Source of the DNA: Armatimonadota bacterium
Lineage (GTDB): Bacteria > Armatimonadota > UBA5829
Direction: 5' to 3'
NCBI GenBank assembly: GCA_052035525.1
Contig: JBPOHN010000012.1
Location: forward strand, 208,784-272,783
DNA length: 64,000 nt
Below the pieces are notes generated by a model, which ran no database searches, was not told the DNA's origin, and was given only the letters and a program-made list of their open reading frames with translations. Both the position numbers and the translations under genes were made by a program. Each line of letters begins with the position of its first letter. Position 1 is the stretch's first letter. This document shows positions 5,699 to 17,576 of the stretch, one piece after another.

Positions 5699-7509
5699 TC
5701 AGCGTACAACCTCTCGAAATCGGCCACCAGACCTTCCACGACCTTGATTCCGCCGCGCCAGAACTCGGGGTCGCGGATGTCGATGCCCACCCGCCCGAGC
5801 AACTCCTCGGGCGAACACGCGCCGCCGGTCCTCAGAAGCTCGATGTACTTCGGCACGAACGACTCGCCCTCGCGCAGATACATCGAGTAGAGCGCCATCA
5901 CGAGCAGTTCGCCGAACGAATAGGCATACACGTAGAACGGCGATTCGACGAAGTGGTTTACATACATCCACCAGTACGCATGCTCCTCGCCCATTTCCAC
6001 GGAGTCTTTGAACATGGCCTGGATGTTGCGCTGCCACATCTCGCCGATTTGCTCGGTCGTAAGCTCGCCCTGCTCCCGCCTGCCCCGATGCAGTTCCTGC
6101 TCGAAACGATACATGGCCGCCTGGCGGAACACTGTTGCAAATATACCGTCTATCTTCTCAGCGTAGAGGGCAAGTTTCTCTTCCAGGTTGGAATTGGCCA
6201 CCAGGCTCTGGAAGACGAGCATTTCCCCGAAGGTGCTGGCAAGCTCGGCTACTGGCAGCACGCTGCCGAAGTTGAACAGCGTCTGGCGCCGGGCGAGGGA
6301 ATAGTGGACCCCATGACCGAGTTCATGCGCGAGCGTCATGATGTCCTCCTTGCGGTTCAGGTAGCTCATCAGCACGTAGGGGTGCAGGTCCGGTGTAACC
6401 GAGATGCAGAACGCCCCGCCGCGTTTGGCCTTGCGCGGTTCCGCATCGATCCAGTTGTTATCGAAAAACTCCCGCGCGGCGTCGGCCATTTCGGTCGAGA
6501 ACCGTCCGAACGAATCCAGGACGATCTCTTTGCCCTGCTCGAACGAATATTCCTCGCGTGACTCGAACAGCGGAGCGTAGCGATCGTAGTGATAGAGCTT
6601 GTCATAGCCCAGCGCCTCGCGCTTCACCCGATAGTAGCGTGCCACGAGGTCATAGCCTTCCACGCACTTGTCCATTACGTTCTCGACCGTCTGCCTGTCC
6701 AACTCGTTCGAGATATTACGTGCTTGCTCCGGATACTCGCAGCGGCGCAGGCGATCATCTATGGATTTGTCATAGACGAGGGTGTTGAAGATGAAAGTCA
6801 GCAGCCGGCTGTTGGCAACAAGGCCCTGAGTCAAGGACTCAGCCGCCGCCTTGCGCACCTCCCGGCGTGGATCCCGCAGCAGAGCGAGGACTTCCGGCTC
6901 GCTGAGTGTCTGCTCCACTCCGTCGAGCGTGATCTTGAACTCGATCGTTGAGACGGACTCCTCAAACAGGCGCTCAAAAGCTCGCCCTCCGGTGTTAGCT
7001 TTCTCCTCCAGGATTCGCTCCTCGCCTTCGGGCAGTTTGTGGTCGCGAAACAGGCGCGAAGCATGGATGAAGTGCTTGTAGTTGACGAGGATAGGGTCTT
7101 CAAGCAGCCTATCGATGATCTCCGGCTTGGCGGCCATCAGTTCCAGCTCAAAGAAGATCAACTGAAGAGAGATCTCTGTCTGCCGTTCCTGCACGTGCTG
7201 CATCAGGGCGCCGTGCTCGGGCTTGCTCGTATCTGCAGAGAAGACCTGTACCGCGTAGCTGCTTACCTTCGACTGCACGGTGGCCATGTCCTCGAGTTCC
7301 TCGATTGCCTCCAGCAGCGTCTCTGCGGTCAGATCGTCGCTATTGATCCTCCCCCGGTAGCGTTCCGCGAACGCTTTGGCACGAGCCAGAGTAGCGTCAA
7401 GAGCCTTATCTATCGCGGGGTCGTCCACTCCGCTGAACAACTCGCTGAGGTCCCACGCGACCTTTGTTGTGTCGGGCATATCGATCTCCTTCACTTGAGA
7501 TAAGGGCAA
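5677..7509 (-). CDS. pepF: Oligoendopeptidase F (M3B metallopeptidase)
   Basis: HELGHGVH zinc motif and ~600 aa length typical of PepF. The true start may be MPDTT at 7479. Confidence 0.9.
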   Translation of the reverse strand: MPLSQVKEIDMPDTTKVAWDLSELFSGVDDPAIDKALDATLARAKAFAERYRGRINSDDLTAETLLEAIEELEDMATVQSKVSSYAVQVFSADTSKPEHGALMQHVQERQTEISLQLIFFELELMAAKPEIIDRLLEDPILVNYKHFIHASRLFRDHKLPEGEERILEEKANTGGRAFERLFEESVSTIEFKITLDGVEQTLSEPEVLALLRDPRREVRKAAAESLTQGLVANSRLLTFIFNTLVYDKSIDDRLRRCEYPEQARNISNELDRQTVENVMDKCVEGYDLVARYYRVKREALGYDKLYHYDRYAPLFESREEYSFEQGKEIVLDSFGRFSTEMADAAREFFDNNWIDAEPRKAKRGGAFCISVTPDLHPYVLMSYLNRKEDIMTLAHELGHGVHYSLARRQTLFNFGSVLPVAELASTFGEMLVFQSLVANSNLEEKLALYAEKIDGIFATVFRQAAMYRFEQELHRGRREQGELTTEQIGEMWQRNIQAMFKDSVEMGEEHAYWWMYVNHFVESPFYVYAYSFGELLVMALYSMYLREGESFVPKYIELLRTGGACSPEELLGRVGIDIRDPEFWRGGIKVVEGLVADFERLYAEWKGQTA

Positions 7510-9967: not shown

Positions 9968-10543
9968 ATGAGCCAGATAAGAGTAGTAATCGCAGACGAC
10001 GAATCGATCATTCGGCTTGACCTGAAAACGCTCCTCGAGGAGATGGGGCATGTGGTCATCGGCGAGGCCGCGGACGGTCAGCGGGCGCTGGAGTTGGCCC
10101 GCAGCCTGAAGCCGGATGTTGTCATAATGGATATCAAGATGCCGATTATGGACGGGCTCGACGCGGCGAAGGTCATATCAGAGGAGAAGATCGCCCCCGT
10201 CGTGCTGCTCACGGCCTACAGCCAAAAGGACCTGATAGAGCGCGCCAAAGAGGCCGGGGTCTACGCCTACCTTGTGAAGCCCTTCCAGGAATCCGCCCTG
10301 ATGCCTGCCATCGAGCTTGCGCTGTCGCGCTATCTCGAGCAGCAGGATCTCGAAAAGACGCTCGGCAGCCTCGAAGAGAAGCTGGAAACCCGGAAGCTCG
10401 TGGATCGCGCCAAAGGCATCCTGATGGACAAGTACCAGATGAATGAGGCCGATGCGTTCAGAAGAATCCAGCAGCAGAGCATGAACCAGCGCCGCACGAT
10501 GAAGGAAATCGCCGAGGCGATCATCATCGCGCACGAGATATAG
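9968..10543 (+). CDS. ANTAR-domain response regulator (REC + ANTAR; PdtaR/AmiR/NasT-like)
   Basis: VVIADDESIIRLDL...DVVIMDIKMP (REC, with Asp pocket), and C-terminal ...LVDRAKGILMDKYQMNEADAFRRIQQQSMNQRRTMKEIAEAII (ANTAR). Confidence 0.9.
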   Translation: MSQIRVVIADDESIIRLDLKTLLEEMGHVVIGEAADGQRALELARSLKPDVVIMDIKMPIMDGLDAAKVISEEKIAPVVLLTAYSQKDLIERAKEAGVYAYLVKPFQESALMPAIELALSRYLEQQDLEKTLGSLEEKLETRKLVDRAKGILMDKYQMNEADAFRRIQQQSMNQRRTMKEIAEAIIIAHEI

Positions 10544-10683: not shown

Positions 10684-12231
10684 ATGCTCCACATCGACGA
10701 GATGCTCAAGAAGGTGGCCGACATTGTTGCCCAGGTCACCGGCACAGACCTCTGCTTGATCTACCTCCTCAATGACGCAGCCAACGAACTGGTGCTCAGA
10801 GCCGCGAGCGGCGACACCAAGGACGTCGTCGGCAAGGTTCGACTGAAGGTCGGCGAGGGCGTCACCGGCTGGGTCGCGCAGCAGCGCATGCCCGCCATCA
10901 TAAACAAGGAGGCGCCTCGCGACAAGCGCTTCAAGATGGTCCCCGGCTTCAAGGAGGACAACTATCAGTCCATGCTGTCCGTGCCGCTGAGGGGCCGCCA
11001 TGATCTTATTGGGGTCATCACCGTCCGCACAAAGCCGGCGCACGAGTATACTGAGACGCAGGTCAGCCTCCTGGACAGCATAGCCCGGCAGGTAGGCGGC
11101 GCCGTCGAGAACCACAACCAGTATCGCCGGATGGAGCAGCGCGCGTCGCAGCTCAGCACCCTCTCTGAAGTCAGCCGCACGATCACCTCCGACCTGTATC
11201 TCGAAGAGATCCTCCAGCTCATCGTGGCTATGACCGCCGAGAGCATGAACTTCAGGATTTGCTCGATTATGCTCCTCGACGACAAGAAGCAGGAGCTTGT
11301 GATCAAGGCCACGCAATCGAAGAGCCGCGCGTATGTCAAGAAGCCTAACCTCAAGCTTTCCGAAAGCGTAGCGGGCCGCGCGGTAACCGAGGGCAAGCCT
11401 ATCACGATATTAGATGTGCGCAAGACGGCGGGTTACCAGTATCCGGACATCGCCAAGCAGGAGGGCTTGTGCTCGCTGATCGCGCTGCCTCTCGCGGTGA
11501 AGAAGGAGATAATCGGCGTCCTCAACTGCTATACGGCGAAACCCAGGCACTTCACCGAGGAAGACATCAACCTCTTGACGGCGCTTGCGAATCAGGCCGC
11601 GCTATCGATCCAGAATGCGAAGCTGATGGTGCAGACTGCCGTCCTGCAGGAGATGCACCACAGGGTGAAAAACAGCCTGCAGACCATCGCCAGCCTGCTG
11701 AGGCTGCAGCTTAGGGTTGGAAAGTTCGATTCGCCGCGCGAGGCTCTCACCCAGAGTATAAACCGCATTCAAAGCATCGCGGCCGTTCACGAGATGCTGT
11801 CCAGCGAGAACCTCGACGATGTCAACCTCCGCAAACTCGCGGAGAACATTCTCTCGGCAACCGCAAGAGGTCTGCTGCCGGACACGAGGGAGGTCAGGAC
11901 CGCCGTCGAGGGCGACGATTTCCTGCTTCCAAGCGGCCAGGCGACCTACGTGGCGCTGATCCTGAACGAGCTTATCCAGAACGCGGTCGAGCACGGGCTC
12001 AAGGGCGATATGGGGACGGAACTGCTTGTGGAAGTCTCGCAGAACGAGGATTCGGTGAGGATCGCGGTCACAAACGACGGCGAACCGCTTCCCGACGACT
12101 TCGACCTCAAAGGCAACCGCAATCTGGGCCTCAAGATCGTCGAAAGCCTCGTCCGGGACAACCTGATGGGCGAGTTCCTCATCTCATCGGCTAACGGCCG
12201 CACTTGCTCCGTAGTGCGGTTTCCGAGGTAG
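10684..12231 (+). CDS. Sensor histidine kinase with two GAF domains, a HisKA_2-type H-box and HATPase (PdtaS-like)
   Basis: Two GAF-like blocks (...VGEGVTGWVAQQRMP...; ...VAGRAVTEGKPITILDV...), H-box EMHHRVKNSLQTIASLL, and N-box/G-box ILNELIQNAVEHG...GLGL. No ATG/GTG/TTG upstream in frame, so the start at 10684 stands or is a non-canonical codon. Confidence 0.85.
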   Translation: MLHIDEMLKKVADIVAQVTGTDLCLIYLLNDAANELVLRAASGDTKDVVGKVRLKVGEGVTGWVAQQRMPAIINKEAPRDKRFKMVPGFKEDNYQSMLSVPLRGRHDLIGVITVRTKPAHEYTETQVSLLDSIARQVGGAVENHNQYRRMEQRASQLSTLSEVSRTITSDLYLEEILQLIVAMTAESMNFRICSIMLLDDKKQELVIKATQSKSRAYVKKPNLKLSESVAGRAVTEGKPITILDVRKTAGYQYPDIAKQEGLCSLIALPLAVKKEIIGVLNCYTAKPRHFTEEDINLLTALANQAALSIQNAKLMVQTAVLQEMHHRVKNSLQTIASLLRLQLRVGKFDSPREALTQSINRIQSIAAVHEMLSSENLDDVNLRKLAENILSATARGLLPDTREVRTAVEGDDFLLPSGQATYVALILNELIQNAVEHGLKGDMGTELLVEVSQNEDSVRIAVTNDGEPLPDDFDLKGNRNLGLKIVESLVRDNLMGEFLISSANGRTCSVVRFPR

Positions 12232-12261: not shown

Positions 12262-13161
12262 CTACCAGATCTTCCACCACTTGCGCGCCACCGCCGGCTT
12301 CGGACAACAATTGGGGCACGGCTTTGCACTGCGCTCCGCCATGAATCTGACCTCACACGAAACCGGTGATTGGGCCAGTGGGCAGTCCTCACGCAAGTGG
12401 TAGACCGCAGCTTTGTCGATCCACATTTGCCCGAGTGATGGATACTTGGCAAGGCCCGACACATCCAACTGCAGCATTCCCCAACCATCCTTCCCGCGCG
12501 CGAACCGCGTTGCTGCGAGGTTGACGGCGGTTACCTGGCCAGCACCCAGGAGCTTCTTTGCGGCCGCTGCATAGATGCGGATGGAAGCGCCCGTATTGCA
12601 GATATCGTCGATGAGCAGCACGCTGCCCGATAGCTGCCCAGGTCGAGCGAAGAGGTCCTGCGACACATACCGCAGGCGAGCTTTCAGCATCTCCGGCCCC
12701 CCAAGCCTGTCCACTACCCGCATCGGTGGACGCGCGCCGCTCTTGAAAAAAACATCCGTGCCATTGCGAGCGCCAGTCAGCGAACACAGAACGTCCACCA
12801 GCAGGCTCTGCGGCCTCGTAGGGTCAGGCTGCGCCTCGGCGGAGCTTAGCACGCGCAGAACCCAGTCGAACTTGCGCCGGTTGGTCGCCCCTACGGCAGC
12901 TCGGTCCACGATCAGACTCGCGTAAAACCTGCAGAAATGAGAGATGTGTGGCTCGAAGTCATCCGCGGGCACGCACCCCTTGAACGCCTTTACCAGGCGG
13001 CTCTCGAAGCTCCTGCGCGAGCCGATCCAAAACGACCCGAGCGTATAGCTGATGTCGCACGGATCACTCTCGCACAGCTCGGCAAAATCGAACGCGTCCC
13101 GCAGCGGGATCGGTGGCTTGCGGCTCGGAGTACTCATCAACTGCCTGTTCGCCGTTCGCAA
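12262..13161 (-). CDS. Phosphoribosyltransferase (PRTase)-fold domain protein with C-terminal Cys cluster; function unknown
   Basis: PRPP-loop-like motif SVLLIDDICNTGASI, and C-terminal CPLAQSPVSCEV...CPNCCPKP. Related in architecture to ComF-type PRTase proteins but with no N-terminal zinc finger. Confidence 0.5.
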   Translation of the reverse strand: MRTANRQLMSTPSRKPPIPLRDAFDFAELCESDPCDISYTLGSFWIGSRRSFESRLVKAFKGCVPADDFEPHISHFCRFYASLIVDRAAVGATNRRKFDWVLRVLSSAEAQPDPTRPQSLLVDVLCSLTGARNGTDVFFKSGARPPMRVVDRLGGPEMLKARLRYVSQDLFARPGQLSGSVLLIDDICNTGASIRIYAAAAKKLLGAGQVTAVNLAATRFARGKDGWGMLQLDVSGLAKYPSLGQMWIDKAAVYHLREDCPLAQSPVSCEVRFMAERSAKPCPNCCPKPAVARKWWKIW

Positions 13162-13171
13162 GTGGGATTAC

Positions 13172-13260
13172 TGCCTGTCAAACAGGCTGTAGGGGCGACG
13201 CATCCGCAGGCAGGCGAAGCAAAGTGTAACCGGCCCCAATGCGGATGCTTTGCCCCCTAC
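13172..13260. repeat. Long imperfect palindrome upstream of the PRTase-like gene
   Basis: GTAGGGGCGACGCATCCGCA ... TGCGGATGCTTTGCCCCCTAC: arms of ~20 nt separated by ~35 nt. Confidence 0.5.
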
Positions 13261-13362
13261 GGATATCACCTGAGGAAAGGAGGATGTGCCGCTTCACGCC
13301 TCGAAACGAGTCTGGGCACGATTGTTCCATAACTAGCGTACGAAAATCCCAGACGCAGGTAT

Positions 13363-13490
13363 ATCTCGGCTGTAGAATGAGATCGGTCAGTAGCGCGTTG
13401 CGTCGGTTGCGAGACTTGCGCGGCGAGCTCACTTAACCTCTCTTTTCTGCATTGGGGATGGCTGCAATCCGGCCATCCCGTTTTCTTCTG
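13363..13490 (+). promoter_or_regulatory. Leader of the C1 operon: candidate promoter (-10 TAGAAT 13363-13368), riboswitch-like aptamer (13381-13440) and intrinsic terminator (13455-13490)
   Basis: A plus-strand terminator GGGATGGC-tgcaatcc-GCCATCCC + GTTTTCTTCTG lies immediately upstream of an RBS (GGAGG 13517-13521) and the GTG start at 13530, with no upstream plus-strand gene. This is the classic attenuator layout. The leader contains ...CAGUAGCGCGUUGCG...GCGCGGCGA..., reminiscent of THF-riboswitch conserved blocks. Confidence 0.3.
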
Positions 13491-13529
13491 AACAAGAGTG
13501 CTAAGTTCTCCTGTAGGAGGTAGTCTATT

Positions 13530-14354
13530 GTGCTAATCGTTGGCGAGAGAATCAACACCAGCAGGAAGGTAAAGGGCGAACCAGTTATTGAGGCCGCCGT
13601 TGTCGGGCGAAATGCCGAGTTCATCGCCGACCTCGCGAAGAAGCAGTTCGAGGCCGGAGCGACCTACATAGATATCAACGCCGGGACCCTTACTTCCGGC
13701 GAACCGGAAGCGCTGGAGTGGCTTACGCAAGTCGTGCAGTCTGCGGTGGACGCGCCGATAGCGTTCGACACCCCCAATCCCGCTGCCCTGGAGAAGGCAT
13801 TGGCAGCATACGATACCGCCAAGGGCCAGCCGATGATCAACTCGATCACCGCTGAGTCCGAGCGCTACGCCAATATCCTCCCGTTCGTGCTGAAATACAA
13901 GGCCAAGGTGATCGCGCTTGCGATGGACGATACGGGAATCCAGCAGGACCCCACGAAGAGGCTCGCCGTAGCTCGGAAGTTGATTGCCGACCTCACCGCC
14001 GCGGGAGTTGCGCTGGACGATATCTACATCGACCCGCTCACATTCCCGATCGGCACGGGCAGCGATGTTGCAGTCGCTATGCTCGACATAATCGAGAAGC
14101 TCGCCGCCGAGTTCCCGGGCGTTCACATCATAGCCGGGCTGAGCAATATCTCGCATGGCATGCCCGCGCGGAAGCTCCTAAACCAGGCGATGACGGTGCT
14201 GGCTCTCGGTAAGGGTCTGGATGCGGGGATCATCGACCCGAACGACAGATACCTGATGGCACTCATCTACGCGACCGAGGCGCTGCTCGGCCGCGATGAG
14301 TTCTGTATGAACTACATAAGCAAATCCCGCGAGGGAGCATTCGAAGGGATCTAG
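13530..14354 (+). CDS. Pterin-binding (DHPS-like TIM barrel) methyltetrahydrofolate:corrinoid methyltransferase family protein (AcsE/MtrH-like)
   Basis: VLIVGERINTSRK...ATYIDINAGT...DTPNPAALEKAL...MINSIT is the typical MeTr/pterin-binding domain layout. GTG start with a good RBS. Confidence 0.8.
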   Translation: MLIVGERINTSRKVKGEPVIEAAVVGRNAEFIADLAKKQFEAGATYIDINAGTLTSGEPEALEWLTQVVQSAVDAPIAFDTPNPAALEKALAAYDTAKGQPMINSITAESERYANILPFVLKYKAKVIALAMDDTGIQQDPTKRLAVARKLIADLTAAGVALDDIYIDPLTFPIGTGSDVAVAMLDIIEKLAAEFPGVHIIAGLSNISHGMPARKLLNQAMTVLALGKGLDAGIIDPNDRYLMALIYATEALLGRDEFCMNYISKSREGAFEGI

Positions 14355-14358
14355 GAAC

Positions 14359-14436
14359 TACGAATTACGAATGACGAGTCACGAATCGCAGAGGATTTCC
14401 CCTTCAGTCGTGACGCGCAATTCGTAACTCGTCATT
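14359..14436. repeat. Array of ACGAAT-type heptamer repeats (4 direct + 2 inverted) in the metF upstream region
   Basis: TACGAAT TACGAAT GACGAGT CACGAAT (14359-14386), then ~32 nt, then AATTCGTAACTCGTCATT (14419-14436; the reverse complement gives GACGAGT TACGAAT). The same word pair recurs at 29003-29020. Confidence 0.45.
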
Positions 14437-14438
14437 GG

Positions 14439-15449
14439 GTGACTCTAATGATTTCCGGTAGCAATCTTGAGCTCTTGTTGGAGCAGGGGGAGTTCGTGGT
14501 CTGTGGGGAGATGAGTCCTCCGCAGGGCGCGGACAAGGCATCGATCCTCAAAAAGTGCAGTTACTTCAAGGACGTGGTCGATGCGGTTAACCTGACTGAT
14601 AACCAGACCGCCATCGTAAGGATGAGTTCGGTCATGTCCAGCGTGTTCGCGCTGGAGGGCGGCGTCGAGCCGATCATCCAGATGACCTGCCGCGACCGCA
14701 ACCGCCTCGCGCAGCAGTCGGATATTCTCGGAGCGTATGCGGCCGGCGTCAAGAACATCCTCTGTCTCACGGGCGACTATATGAGCTTCGGCAACCACCC
14801 TCAGGCAAAGGGTGTTTTCGACCTCGATTCCGTCCAGCTCATTCATACTGTCGCCGATATGAATGCCGGCAAGTTCCTCTCGGGTGATGAGATGAAGTCG
14901 CCGCCAAAGATGTTCATCGGCGGCGCGGCAAACCCGTTCGCCGAGCCATTCGACCTGCGGATCGTCCGTCTGGGCAAGAAGATCGCTGCAGGAGCGCATT
15001 TCATCCAGACCCAACCCGTTTTCGACTTCCCCCGCTTCGAACGGTGGATCAAAGCGGTGCGCGATGAGGGTTACGATCAGCAGGTGCACATCCTGGCCGG
15101 CGTCATGCCGGTGCGGTCTGTGAAGGCGCTGCTCTACATGAAGGAGAGCGTGCCGGGGATGAGCGTGGCGGACGAGTACATCCAGCGGATGTCTGACGTA
15201 GCGGATTCCAAGGAAGCAAGCGCGGAGATGGGCGTGCAGATCTGCGTGGAGACGATCAAGCGGCTCCGGGAAATACCTGGTGTCCACGGAGTTCACATAA
15301 TGCCTGTTATGTGGGAATCCATCACTCCGAGACTCGTAGAAGCCGCCGGCCTTCTCCCTCGCCCGAAGCCTGTCGAGCCCCAGCCGGAAGCGAGTCCTTC
15401 CGAGGGAACCGGGGAATCTGCTGTGTCTGCCCCAGGAGCGCAATCATGA
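14439..15449 (+). CDS. metF: 5,10-methylenetetrahydrofolate reductase
   Basis: MetF-family TIM barrel with MISGSN... N-terminus. The probable true start is ATG 14448. Stop overlaps the metV ATG (ATGA). Confidence 0.85.
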   Translation: MTLMISGSNLELLLEQGEFVVCGEMSPPQGADKASILKKCSYFKDVVDAVNLTDNQTAIVRMSSVMSSVFALEGGVEPIIQMTCRDRNRLAQQSDILGAYAAGVKNILCLTGDYMSFGNHPQAKGVFDLDSVQLIHTVADMNAGKFLSGDEMKSPPKMFIGGAANPFAEPFDLRIVRLGKKIAAGAHFIQTQPVFDFPRFERWIKAVRDEGYDQQVHILAGVMPVRSVKALLYMKESVPGMSVADEYIQRMSDVADSKEASAEMGVQICVETIKRLREIPGVHGVHIMPVMWESITPRLVEAAGLLPRPKPVEPQPEASPSEGTGESAVSAPGAQS

Positions 15450-15889
15450 GCAAGTTATCTGAGAAAATCGCGGATTTCTGCGAGAAGCATCCAACGCTGT
15501 ATAAGTGCGTGCTCCTTGGGGAGAACGCGTTCAAGAAGCCCGTGTTCAGGTGCCAGGACTGCGGCCAGTGCGTGCTGAGCTATAACGCCTACACCTGCTG
15601 CATGCGCTGCCCCAAGCAAATCCGTAACGGCCCCTGCGGTGGGACGAGACCCGATGGGCACTGCGAAGTCTATCCCGAGCGTAACTGCATCTGGTGGCTG
15701 ATCTATGAGCGCGCGAAGAAGATCGGCAGGCAGGAAAAGCTCCGCAAGTATCACATACCGGTGGATCGTCGGCTTGAGCACACCAGCGCGTGGATGAATA
15801 TGTTCGCCGGGAGAATCCTGCCGTTGGATCTCGGCAAGGAACTCAAAGAAGTGAAACTGACGCGCGACGACGCGCCGCCGGTCAAGTAG
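15446..15889 (+). CDS. metV: Methylene-THF reductase C-terminal domain protein (MetV-like zinc-ribbon partner of MetF)
   Basis: MSKLSEKIADFCEKHPTLYKCVLLG...CQDCGQCVLSY...CCMRCPKQIRNGPCGG is a Cys-rich MTHFR_C-type domain. Translationally coupled to metF. Confidence 0.7.
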   Translation: MSKLSEKIADFCEKHPTLYKCVLLGENAFKKPVFRCQDCGQCVLSYNAYTCCMRCPKQIRNGPCGGTRPDGHCEVYPERNCIWWLIYERAKKIGRQEKLRKYHIPVDRRLEHTSAWMNMFAGRILPLDLGKELKEVKLTRDDAPPVK

Positions 15890-15908
15890 TAAGATCTGGA
15901 GAATCACG

Positions 15909-17576
15909 ATGCTATCAGACGTTGAAATCGCGCAGAAAGCAAAAGCCAGGCATATACGAGATGTTGCCGCCGAGCTCGGGCTCGGCGAGGACGACCTGAG
16001 GCTGTACGGGCACGACAAGGCAAAGGTCACCTTCGAGGCGATCGAGAAGCGGCAGTCCAACCCGGACGGAAAGCTGATCCTCGTCACCGCCATCACGCCC
16101 ACCCCTGCGGGTGAGGGAAAGACCACCACCACGGTCGGCTTGGGCGACGCGATGCGCAAGCTCGGCATGAAGACCTGCATCGCAATCCGCGAGCCCTCTC
16201 TCGGCCCCTGCTTCGGCGTCAAGGGCGGCGCCGCCGGCGGCGGCTACGCGCAGGTCATCCCGATGGCGGACATCAACCTGCACTTTACCGGCGACTTCCA
16301 CGCCATTACGACCGCGCACAACCTGCTCGCCGCGATGCTCGATAACTCCCTGCACCAGGGCAATCCTCTCGATATCGAGCCCCATTCCATTACGTGGAAG
16401 CGCGTGATGGATATGAACGAGCGCGCGCTACGCGATATCATCATCGGTCTCGGCGGCAAGACCAACGGAATGCCCCGGCAGTCCGGGTTCGATATCACCA
16501 CTGCATCAGAGATCATGGCGCTGCTCTGTCTTGCGTCGGACCGGGAGGACCTGGAGGCTCGGCTGTCCCGCGTGCTGGTCGGCCTCACCAAGTCAGGCGC
16601 GCCGGTCACCGCGAAGGACCTGCAGGCCAGCGGAGCTATGGCCGTGGTCCTCAAAGATGCAATATTCCCGAACATAGTGCAGACTCTCGAGGGTACTCCG
16701 GCGTTCGTACACGGTGGGCCGTTCGGCAACATCGCGCACGGATGCAACTCGATCATCGCCACCAGGGCCGCGCTGAAGCTCGCGGATTATGTGATCACTG
16801 AAGCTGGATTCGGCAGCGACCTGGGCGCCGAGAAGTTCTTCAACATCAAGTGCCGCGTCGGCAATCTCAAGCCGGTTACGGCGGTTGTTGTTGCCACCAT
16901 TCGTGCGCTCAAGATGCACGGCGGCGTGCCCATCAGTGAGCTTACACAGAGCAACCCTGGGGCTGTCGTTAAGGGAATCGCCAACCTCGAGAAGCATTGC
17001 GAGAACGTGCGAGCGGTCAACCTCGAGCCGATTGTAGCTATCAACAAGTTCCCCACGGACTCCGAGGAAGAGATCGCGGCATTGTCAGACGAGTGCCGCA
17101 GGATGGGCGTCACATGGGCGCTTTCCGATGTTTGGGCTGCGGGCGGCGAGGGTGGGCAGGCCCTCGCCGAGCTGGTAGTCAAAGCCGCCGAGGGCGAATC
17201 TACATTCGCGCCTGCCTATCCGCTCGACGTGCCGATAAAGCAGAAGGTCGAGACGATTGCCCAGAAGTTCTATGGCGCGGACGGAGCGGATTTCACCCCG
17301 GCTGCATCGAAGCAAATCGCCGAGATCGAGAAGCTCGGTTTTGCCGGACTTCCGGTCTGCATAGCGAAAACGCAGAACTCACTCTCCGACGATGCCAAAG
17401 CCATCGGCCGTCCGAGAGGCTACAAGATCAACATCCGTGGAGCAAAGGTCAGCGCGGGCGCCGGCTTCGTAGTGATCTACGCAGGCGATATTATGACCAT
17501 GCCCGGCCTGCCGAAAGTGCCCGCGGCCACCAAGATCGGCATGAACTCGAACGGCGAGATCCACGGATTGTTCTAA
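15909..17576 (+). CDS. fhs: Formate--tetrahydrofolate ligase
   Basis: PTPAGEGKTTTTVGL P-loop, 555 aa, FTHFS family throughout. Confidence 0.95.
   Translation: MLSDVEIAQKAKARHIRDVAAELGLGEDDLRLYGHDKAKVTFEAIEKRQSNPDGKLILVTAITPTPAGEGKTTTTVGLGDAMRKLGMKTCIAIREPSLGPCFGVKGGAAGGGYAQVIPMADINLHFTGDFHAITTAHNLLAAMLDNSLHQGNPLDIEPHSITWKRVMDMNERALRDIIIGLGGKTNGMPRQSGFDITTASEIMALLCLASDREDLEARLSRVLVGLTKSGAPVTAKDLQASGAMAVVLKDAIFPNIVQTLEGTPAFVHGGPFGNIAHGCNSIIATRAALKLADYVITEAGFGSDLGAEKFFNIKCRVGNLKPVTAVVVATIRALKMHGGVPISELTQSNPGAVVKGIANLEKHCENVRAVNLEPIVAINKFPTDSEEEIAALSDECRRMGVTWALSDVWAAGGEGGQALAELVVKAAEGESTFAPAYPLDVPIKQKVETIAQKFYGADGADFTPAASKQIAEIEKLGFAGLPVCIAKTQNSLSDDAKAIGRPRGYKINIRGAKVSAGAGFVVIYAGDIMTMPGLPKVPAATKIGMNSNGEIHGLF

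Follow-up and report, generated by a model that had tools for sequence, protein, structure and literature searches.

We found that the folate one-carbon (C1) operon MeTr-metF-metV-fhs in a 64,000-nucleotide stretch of an Armatimonadota genome (contig JBPOHN010000012.1; the whole stretch is called the window below) is preceded by a 5' leader element of about 95-135 nt, which recurs at 16 distinct Armatimonadota loci, always directly upstream of MeTr and on the same strand. The leader is a sequence family matching no catalogued RNA, although of an already known kind of regulator, and it is so far confined to one Armatimonadota branch. We consider it about an even chance that this lineage-specific leader RNA acts as a transcription attenuator of the operon and is opened by a trans-acting factor. 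A sequence-only reading of the window had proposed a riboswitch-like attenuator leader in front of the operon, with blocks that resemble those of tetrahydrofolate (THF) riboswitches. The general part of that proposal is supported, as a conserved terminator leader does lie between a putative promoter and the folate-C1 operon, whereas the specific part, identity with a THF, THF-II or ZTP riboswitch, is wrong.

The leader site is a 392-nt divergent intergenic region (13138-13529). As had been described, a plus-strand hairpin with a U-tract (13455-13489) stands before MeTr, and no plus-strand gene ends upstream of it, the neighboring gene (12262-13137) being on the minus strand. It is the sole terminator-like site in 12800-14000. 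The -10 sequence TAGAAT had been misplaced at 13363; it is found ten bases rightward, at 13373-13378. The assignment of the downstream genes as MeTr-metF-metV-fhs was borne out by Pfam and NCBIfam matches, and the same gene order is repeated in L095, L098 and L100-L103. The lone sequence proves nothing by itself, because shuffles yield an equal terminator count (one site observed in 1.2 kb and a shuffle mean of 1.1). The leader was instead judged real because the order of promoter, hairpin, pyrimidine tract (the CU box) and terminator is kept upstream of the orthologous gene at 16 loci.

These loci were collected in three ways. A protein-guided scan of GTDB genomes gave 80 loci with MeTr relatives, about 35 of them from Armatimonadota at 67-87% identity, and the element was present in only three (L004, L005 and L018). 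A context-free DNA pattern comprising the CU box, a gap and the terminator 3' arm was scanned on metagenome contigs and gave 14 matches, among which the window (L084), L087, L089 (the same as L094) and L091 were true and all upstream of MeTr; the other matches were without hairpins. Finally, the contigs of eleven close MeTr homologues included nine with the element (L095, L097, L098 and L100-L105) and two without it (L106 and L107). We refer to the loci as groups A, B and C, with the window in group A and L004, L005 and L104 in group C.

A covariance model built from 12 sequences recovered these training sequences at E values of about 1e-18 to 1e-25, L105 at 1.2e-11, L004 at 7e-5, and both L005 and L104 at 0.05. 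No further copies were found by the model in 968 kb of related sequence, the whole window included. Four elements folded singly had stability z-scores of -3.2 to -6.2 relative to dinucleotide shuffles, and the model alignment contained 97.5% standard pairs compared with 29-54% when the 3' partners were slid. Frequent G:U pairs, some of them invariant (including U:G pairs of the 5' hairpin, P1), indicate that the RNA is the plus strand.

We then consider the parts of the element in their order. The promoter-like site has the form (C/A)AGAC-18 nt-TAGAAT/TACAAT and is rigidly spaced in 14 of the 15 tabulated loci, with a spacer sequence that is free to vary; the exception is L004 (19 nt, TATGAT), and L105 likewise carries CAGAC, 18 nt and TAGAAT. 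A simple sigma-70 scan did not call this site because its -35 is weak. The putative start, near 13385 in the window, is a G at the seventh nucleotide after the -10, and a purine occupies that place across the loci. It was noted that the promoter spacers (13356-13372 in the window, and those of L087, L095, L097, L098, L089 and L100) are often palindromic with a sequence that differs per locus, such as CCGG...CCGG, GCCGGG...CCCGGC, CCGA...TCGG and ACTCG...CGAGT; these palindromes could be due to chance or to a structure at the DNA or RNA level.

P1 begins at the predicted start and folds in 15/15 homologues tested, at -6 to -23 kcal/mol and with a length of 23-53 nt. Its apex varies in sequence, and in L004, L005 and L104 the whole of P1 is unrelated, being a plain hairpin of 23-40 nt, while L105 has a longer P1 region containing two hairpins. 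Among four close relatives, 95% of the P1 cells are paired and the changes are wobble-only. The CU box that follows is a single-stranded pyrimidine tract resembling an anti-Shine-Dalgarno (anti-SD) sequence. The box AACCUCUCUUUUCUG is invariant in all 13 group A and B sequences (12 plus L105), and its core CUCUCYUUUCU was found in 16/16 loci. In the 15 terminated RNAs tested, the core was predicted to be unpaired with a mean probability of 0.89-0.99, against a whole-RNA value of 0.39-0.53. Next to the box, the linker and GGGAUGGCC hardly vary, so that the CU box, the linker and the terminator 5' arm make up one contiguous conserved block of about 30 nt, around which the P1 apex, the promoter spacer and the post-terminator spacer are free to vary. 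The linker between the CU box and the terminator measures 5-20 nt, and an extra hairpin is inserted in L005 and L104.

As in intrinsic-terminator leaders, a GC-rich hairpin followed by a U-tract lies between the predicted start and the start codon on the gene strand. The hairpin has a folding energy of -15.5 to -20 kcal/mol in 13 loci; the terminator segments of L005 and L104, which include the inserted hairpin, reach -38.0 and -39.5 kcal/mol, respectively. When 13 sequences are compared, the nine modeled pairs of this hairpin are retained at 99%; some of them are G:U on the plus strand, and one is a compensatory A-U. All loci share the 3' arm CAUCYC, and the 5' arm variants GGGAUGG, GGGGUGG and GAGGUGA maintain the pairing partly through G:U. 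Of the 15 tabulated loci, 14 have five or more U among the 8 nt that follow the stem. The coordinates of these and the neighboring features are collected below.

Table. Positions in the window of the leader, its parts and the genes on either side.
Feature	Position	Strand	Details
291-aa gene	12262-13137	minus	start at 13137
Conserved upstream box	13314-13341	plus	GGGCACGATTGTTCCATAACTAGCGTAC; about -70 to -45 from the predicted start
Promoter-like site	13350-13378	plus	-35-like CAGACG 13350-13355; 17-nt spacer; -10 TAGAAT 13373-13378
5' hairpin P1	13385-13438	plus	begins at the predicted transcription start
CU box	13435-13449	plus	AACCTCTCTTTTCTG; universal core CTCTCYTTTCT at 13438-13448
Intrinsic terminator (predicted)	13455-13489	plus	stem-loop 13455-13479, GGGATGGCTG-CAATC-CGGCCATCCC; tail GTTTTCTTCT 13480-13489
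Post-terminator spacer	13490-13529	plus	block GAACAAGAGTGCTA 13490-13503, conserved in group A; Shine-Dalgarno GGAGG 13516-13520
Putatively regulated operon MeTr-metF-metV-fhs	13530-17576	plus	
MeTr (Pterin_bind)	13530-14354	plus	GTG start 13530; Pfam; NCBIfam NF005719, methyl-THF:corrinoid/iron-sulfur protein methyltransferase
MTHFR/metF	14439-15449	plus	Pfam
DUF5981/metV	15311-15889 (open reading frame)	plus	Pfam; true start probably near the metF stop
FTHFS/fhs	15909-17576	plus	Pfam

The distance between terminator and gene proved informative for the mode of action. Measured from 12 nt beyond the terminator stem to the start codon, this spacer amounts to 11 nt (L005, L104), 16 nt (L102), 19 nt (L089, L100) and about 20 nt (L105); in L105 an SD-like GGGGG starts about 6 nt beyond the tail end. 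The spacer is 37-85 nt in most of the remaining loci and 123 nt in L004. In the six short-spacer loci the SD starts at most about 10 nt after the end of the U-tract, and no promoter-like site fits between terminator and gene. Because the ribosome-binding site (RBS) abuts the terminator in these six loci and leaves no room for a promoter, the element is taken to act in cis, and as judged from these sequences the operon there would be expressed only through read-through from the element's own promoter.

We also assessed whether the RNA alone could open the terminator. RNAs folded up to the 3' arm gave no conserved alternative that engages the 5' arm, and the best duplex between the CU box and the 5' arm reached only -4.4 to -9.4 kcal/mol (with no loop penalty), compared with -15.5 to -20 kcal/mol for the terminator. 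Because there is no competing antiterminator fold, an RNA-only switch appears unlikely and the default would be termination. In the proposed order of events, transcription would begin about 7 nt after the -10, the nascent RNA would fold P1, and the CU box would next be exposed in single-stranded form. A strong intrinsic terminator would then form, and the default product would be an RNA of about 105 nt with the operon off. Read-through would most likely require a trans-acting factor, probably an RNA-binding protein, which would recognize the CU box, the linker and the terminator 5' arm and block formation of the hairpin. A conserved block of about 30 nt that overlaps the terminator and has variable flanks is the pattern expected for the site of such a factor. 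What the comparison shows directly is the anatomy, its conservation, the exclusive linkage to this operon, the position in cis and the lack of any known riboswitch; the promoter and start site, regulated as opposed to leaky termination, and the factor and its nature are inferred.

Several observations weigh against this attenuation scheme. The start site, the termination efficiency and the read-through are all predictions. No candidate for a binding protein co-occurs in all loci, and the neighboring genes differ between the groups, with a phosphoribosyltransferase-fold protein in group A, a PocR-AraC regulator in group B and others in group C. Covariation is weak, amounting to two compensatory pairs, a number matched by 13-14 of 500 shuffles; this weakness arises because the stems are conserved in sequence. 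The U-tract of L101 is poor, with 3 U in 8 nt (ACUCUCUC). The element of L004 could be an independent gene uncoupled from the operon, as a promoter-like site follows its terminator (TTGACC, 16 nt, AAAAAT; 5875-5902, plus strand; spacer AT-rich). Lastly, the layout of 5' hairpin, seed and terminator suits a trans-acting small RNA (sRNA) equally well.

The attenuator reading places the element next to the protein-dependent BglG/LicT-RAT, HutP, ANTAR and PyrR leaders, which it resembles in having a default intrinsic terminator before a metabolic operon and a conserved block that overlaps or abuts the terminator 5' arm, with no RNA-only switch. However, the block described here is a single-stranded pyrimidine tract and not a RAT hairpin, a set of UAG repeats, two hexaloop hairpins or a purine-rich PyrR loop, and those leaders have a cognate protein whereas the factor here is postulated. 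An ANTAR target consists of two tandem hexaloop stem-loops, with A at position 1 and G at position 4 of the loop, the second overlapping the terminator. This candidate was rejected: by inspection of the folds, the predicted loop of P1 usually has 3-5 nt and at most 8 nt (L087 and L101), the terminator loops are 4-6 nt and not conserved, and no second hairpin overlaps the 5' arm. More tentatively, the CU box and the conserved 5' arm may form the site of a new antitermination system through which folate-C1 supply would respond to a cellular signal, an idea that we regard as possible yet rather unlikely as it stands. The site could be read by a new RNA-binding regulator, or by the 30S subunit or the initiation machinery itself; as a third option, the leader could be a riboswitch of a new class. 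The 30S option is raised because of the likeness of the box to an anti-SD and of the arm to an SD, and because fhs supplies formyl-Met-tRNA synthesis.

Among the rival explanations, the one that survives best is that of a trans-acting sRNA, perhaps beside a cis role, in which the RNA of about 105 nt would use the CU box as an anti-SD seed and the operon would be expressed through terminator leakage. We hold this to be a tentative alternative with the probabilities leaning clearly against it. In architecture, and in architecture only, the element has the classic sRNA layout: a predicted promoter of its own, a variable 5' hairpin, a conserved exposed stretch that could serve as seed, and a terminator preceded by a U-rich run. 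Its only weak Rfam likenesses, AniS and ncS16, are sRNAs of the same layout, and the promoter-like site after the L004 terminator is consistent with a separate gene. Across the loci, pairing between the CU box and the SD of its operon has an energy of -6.7 to -11.1 kcal/mol (-9.3 in the window), and the median for generic RBS-like sites of the window is -9.6 kcal/mol. This generality cuts both ways, as half of all RBSs would suit such a seed equally well and leave it little specificity; a role as an operon-specific anti-SD was rejected on the same grounds, since 54% of 95 RBS-like sites in the window are at least as good as -9.3. Moreover, the element was never found apart from the MeTr operon, and the RBSs abutting the terminator in six loci argue that the locus is not solely an sRNA gene.

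A precedent for such an sRNA exists in Firmicutes, where RsaE lowers folate-metabolism mRNAs via C-rich motifs that act on SD regions (PMC6158497, PMC2790875). The element resembles the RsaE/RoxS sRNAs in its 5' hairpin, its exposed pyrimidine-rich, SD-complementary motif and its terminator. It differs from them in having one U/C-rich box in place of repeated CCCC/UCCC motifs, in being fused in cis to an operon and in its Armatimonadota host, and no sequence or covariance-model similarity connects the two. The two roles may also be combined, as in the attenuator-derived sRNAs SreA and rnTrpL, where the terminated leader may be a stable trans-acting RNA while read-through expresses the operon. 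Those leaders, however, sense S-adenosylmethionine or leader-peptide translation, whereas the element has neither an aptamer nor a conserved leader peptide.

A new class of metabolite riboswitch, in which P1, the CU box and the terminator would bind a C1-, folate-, purine- or methionine-related metabolite, appears improbable. The terminator resembles an expression platform ahead of a biosynthetic operon, conserved unpaired nucleotides flank the variable stem in groups A and B, and the lack of any known-family match would be expected of a new class. Nevertheless, P1 is unrelated in L004, L005 and L104, which argues against a family-wide binding pocket, and the loops are not conserved. The leader contains no pseudoknot partner of the CU box and no antiterminator that would compete with the terminator, and the only universal parts are the pyrimidine tract and the terminator.

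It was also considered whether the CU box could serve, like boxA, in processive antitermination by recruiting NusB/NusE-type factors that would let RNA polymerase resist the terminator downstream, and this we judge very unlikely. The gamma-proteobacterial boxA consensus is GYUCUUUAANA (PMC5725501). The core CUCUUU equals the center of that consensus, L005 and L104 have CUCUUUA, and a hairpin precedes the box as boxB does in rrn leaders. However, with the caution that this consensus may not be that of the host, the group A and B boxes (CUCUUUUCUG and UCUCUUUUCUG) mismatch it at 4 of 10 specified positions, AA included, and CCUCUUUACCG of L005 and L104 differs at three. The window offers no rRNA operon for comparison. 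In addition, Nus/boxA complexes are known to counter Rho-dependent and not intrinsic termination, which also speaks against this option.

Another explanation would treat the hairpin as the ordinary terminator of a small gene of 50 codons, running from an ATG at 13284 to a TAA at 13434-13436. The frame is open in 6/6 group A loci, where all indels are multiples of three in length and a common UAA stands just before the CU box, and AAAGGAGG precedes the ATG. It is nonetheless highly improbable that this is a gene: the open reading frame (ORF) is broken or absent in groups B and C despite the conserved DNA blocks, its variable segments show no conservation at the amino acid level, no spacing separates GGAGG from the ATG, and the ORF crosses the conserved -35/-10 geometry. 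Two smaller candidates were likewise rejected. ORFs that start from AUG or GUG in the terminator 5' arm are open, but neither the frames nor the peptides are conserved, because the loop lengths differ, so that a leader peptide is not indicated. A helix between the 5'-end GGUCAGU and ACUGACU, which lies between the SD and the start codon, was predicted in group B and in L097; the window has no partner for it, and L105 contradicts it with GGUUAUU facing an unchanged partner.

The least tenable explanation is that the element is a THF-I (RF01831), THF-II or ZTP (RF01750) riboswitch, which is almost certainly not the case. A folate C1 operon would be a biologically sensible context, and the AGUAG, CGCGUU and GCGCGG blocks to which the sequence-only reading pointed have a local likeness in the window alone. 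The strings GTAGCGCGTTGCG (13390-13402) and GCGCGGCGA (13418-13426) do exist as it had said, but their resemblance to THF blocks does not hold, as they are the strands of P1 and are changed in homologues: in group B AGUAG becomes AGUCG and CGCGUU becomes CGCGCC, and both are absent in L004, L005 and L104. P1 is a single hairpin, with neither a three-way junction nor a pseudoknot. The covariance-model check named in that reading (THF, THF-II and ZTP) found no match in the leader or the window. At gathering thresholds, Rfam 15 gave no match in the 64-kb window, and permissive scans with E values up to 10 (13130-13560, 431 nt; 13380-13495, 116 nt) gave no THF, THF-II, ZTP, T-box or other riboswitch, merely chance matches of 10-20 bits to mir-337, a CRISPR repeat, snoRNAs and the sRNAs AniS and ncS16. 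Membership in these families was therefore rejected. A T-box leader was also rejected, with no RF00230 match and a P1 of only 23-53 nt and variable sequence.

The element is thus like the THF-I, THF-II and ZTP riboswitches in being a cis leader before folate or C1 genes, and it differs from them in having no model match, conserved junction or pseudoknot. As a positive control, gathering-threshold Rfam searches found a ZTP riboswitch (61.6 bits) at L029 11771-11858 on the plus strand, directly upstream of a gene translating as PurH, so that such searches do have power in this phylum. The gene fhs is a classical ZTP-regulated gene; in related Armatimonadota, however, ZTP sits before purH and not before the MeTr operon. 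The Rfam search of 24 Armatimonadota loci that lack the element, which might have hinted at a ligand, gave no known riboswitch before the orthologous operon; what it did return was ZTP before purH, together with RNase P, 6S RNA and a fragment of a group II intron. The intron match, to the group II catalytic intron model, lies at L029 6903-6973, about 100 nt downstream of MeTr. It was noted that RNase P RNA genes (L029 10545-10961 and L030 8115-8541) and 6S RNA genes (L014 672-861 and L019 256-445) occur near the operon.

Armatimonadota relatives lacking the element use different promoters and short leaders. Four loci without it (L006, L008, L009 and L010) have in common a different region about 60-110 nt upstream of MeTr, CTTGCAAAC..N..TTGCAGTAGCAT, in which a palindrome-like TTGCAA/TTGCAG pair overlaps a -35/-10-like site; this suggests that the control region of the operon has turned over within the phylum.

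Upstream of the promoter-like site, the motif GCACGAkATTnCCAnnAC is repeated in all three groups (A, B and C) at a constant distance from the -10, and this conserved box is likely a transcription-factor site. In group A, the region corresponding to 13276-13319 of the window consists of AAAGGAGGATGTGCC and GGGCACGAT separated by 23 variable nt that contain CGAAAC at their center, and the distance from the ATG to GGGCACGATTG is constant at 41 nt. Read on the minus strand, the same region gives CAUCCUCCUUUCC, a second CU-box-like tract after a GUGCC...GGCAC hairpin, which may lie within the 5' untranslated region of the minus-strand gene. A long imperfect hairpin (GTAGGGGCGACGCATCCGCA...TGCGGATGCTTTGCCCCCTAC) also occupies 13188-13260 between the divergent genes. 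L095 has this hairpin with a compensatory change from CATCCGCA/TGCGGATG to CATTCGCA/TGCGAATG; L087 and L091 lack the hairpin, and the window has no second copy of it.

We further characterized the genes around the leader. The 291-aa neighbor encoded on the minus strand had no Pfam or NCBIfam match. It has a phosphoribosyl pyrophosphate (PRPP)-loop-like motif (LLIDDICNTGAS) and a Cys-rich C-terminus, and its AlphaFold2 model (pLDDT 92.3) shows a phosphoribosyltransferase-like fold. The best Foldseek matches were ShosT, APRT, ComF and PyrR, all of them weak (TM 0.3-0.5). Its family comprises 102 proteins, and all those with taxon-bearing names are from Armatimonadota. Only in the six group A loci does the gene adjoin the leader, in divergent orientation; a possible role as a PyrR-like RNA-binding attenuator protein gains no support from these weak matches and this restricted adjacency, nor do they speak decisively against it. 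In most group B loci, the leader is immediately preceded by a gene for a PocR+AraC regulator in the same orientation. In the window, an ANTAR-output response regulator (9968-10543, plus) is found some 3 kb before the leader and is followed by a double-GAF HWE/HisKA_2 histidine kinase (10684-12231, plus). This arrangement was also seen in L095 and in no other listed locus with called genes, a comparison outside which L004, L005, L018, L087, L089 and L091 lie.

The Armatimonadota are almost entirely uncultured, and a full-text literature search (Armatimonadetes and riboswitch) returned no report of a regulatory RNA from the phylum. Known C1 and purine riboswitches do occur in Armatimonadota. The element described here also carries a caution for annotation, in that a terminator leader before folate genes with THF-like GC-rich blocks is not the same as a THF riboswitch. 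It represents a well-delimited candidate for control of the methyl-THF/formate branch of C1 metabolism in Armatimonadota. If the CU-box factor exists, the two would constitute a new RNA-protein or RNA-ribosome antitermination pair, and a trans activity of the terminated RNA, if real, would make it the first sRNA to be proposed in Armatimonadota.

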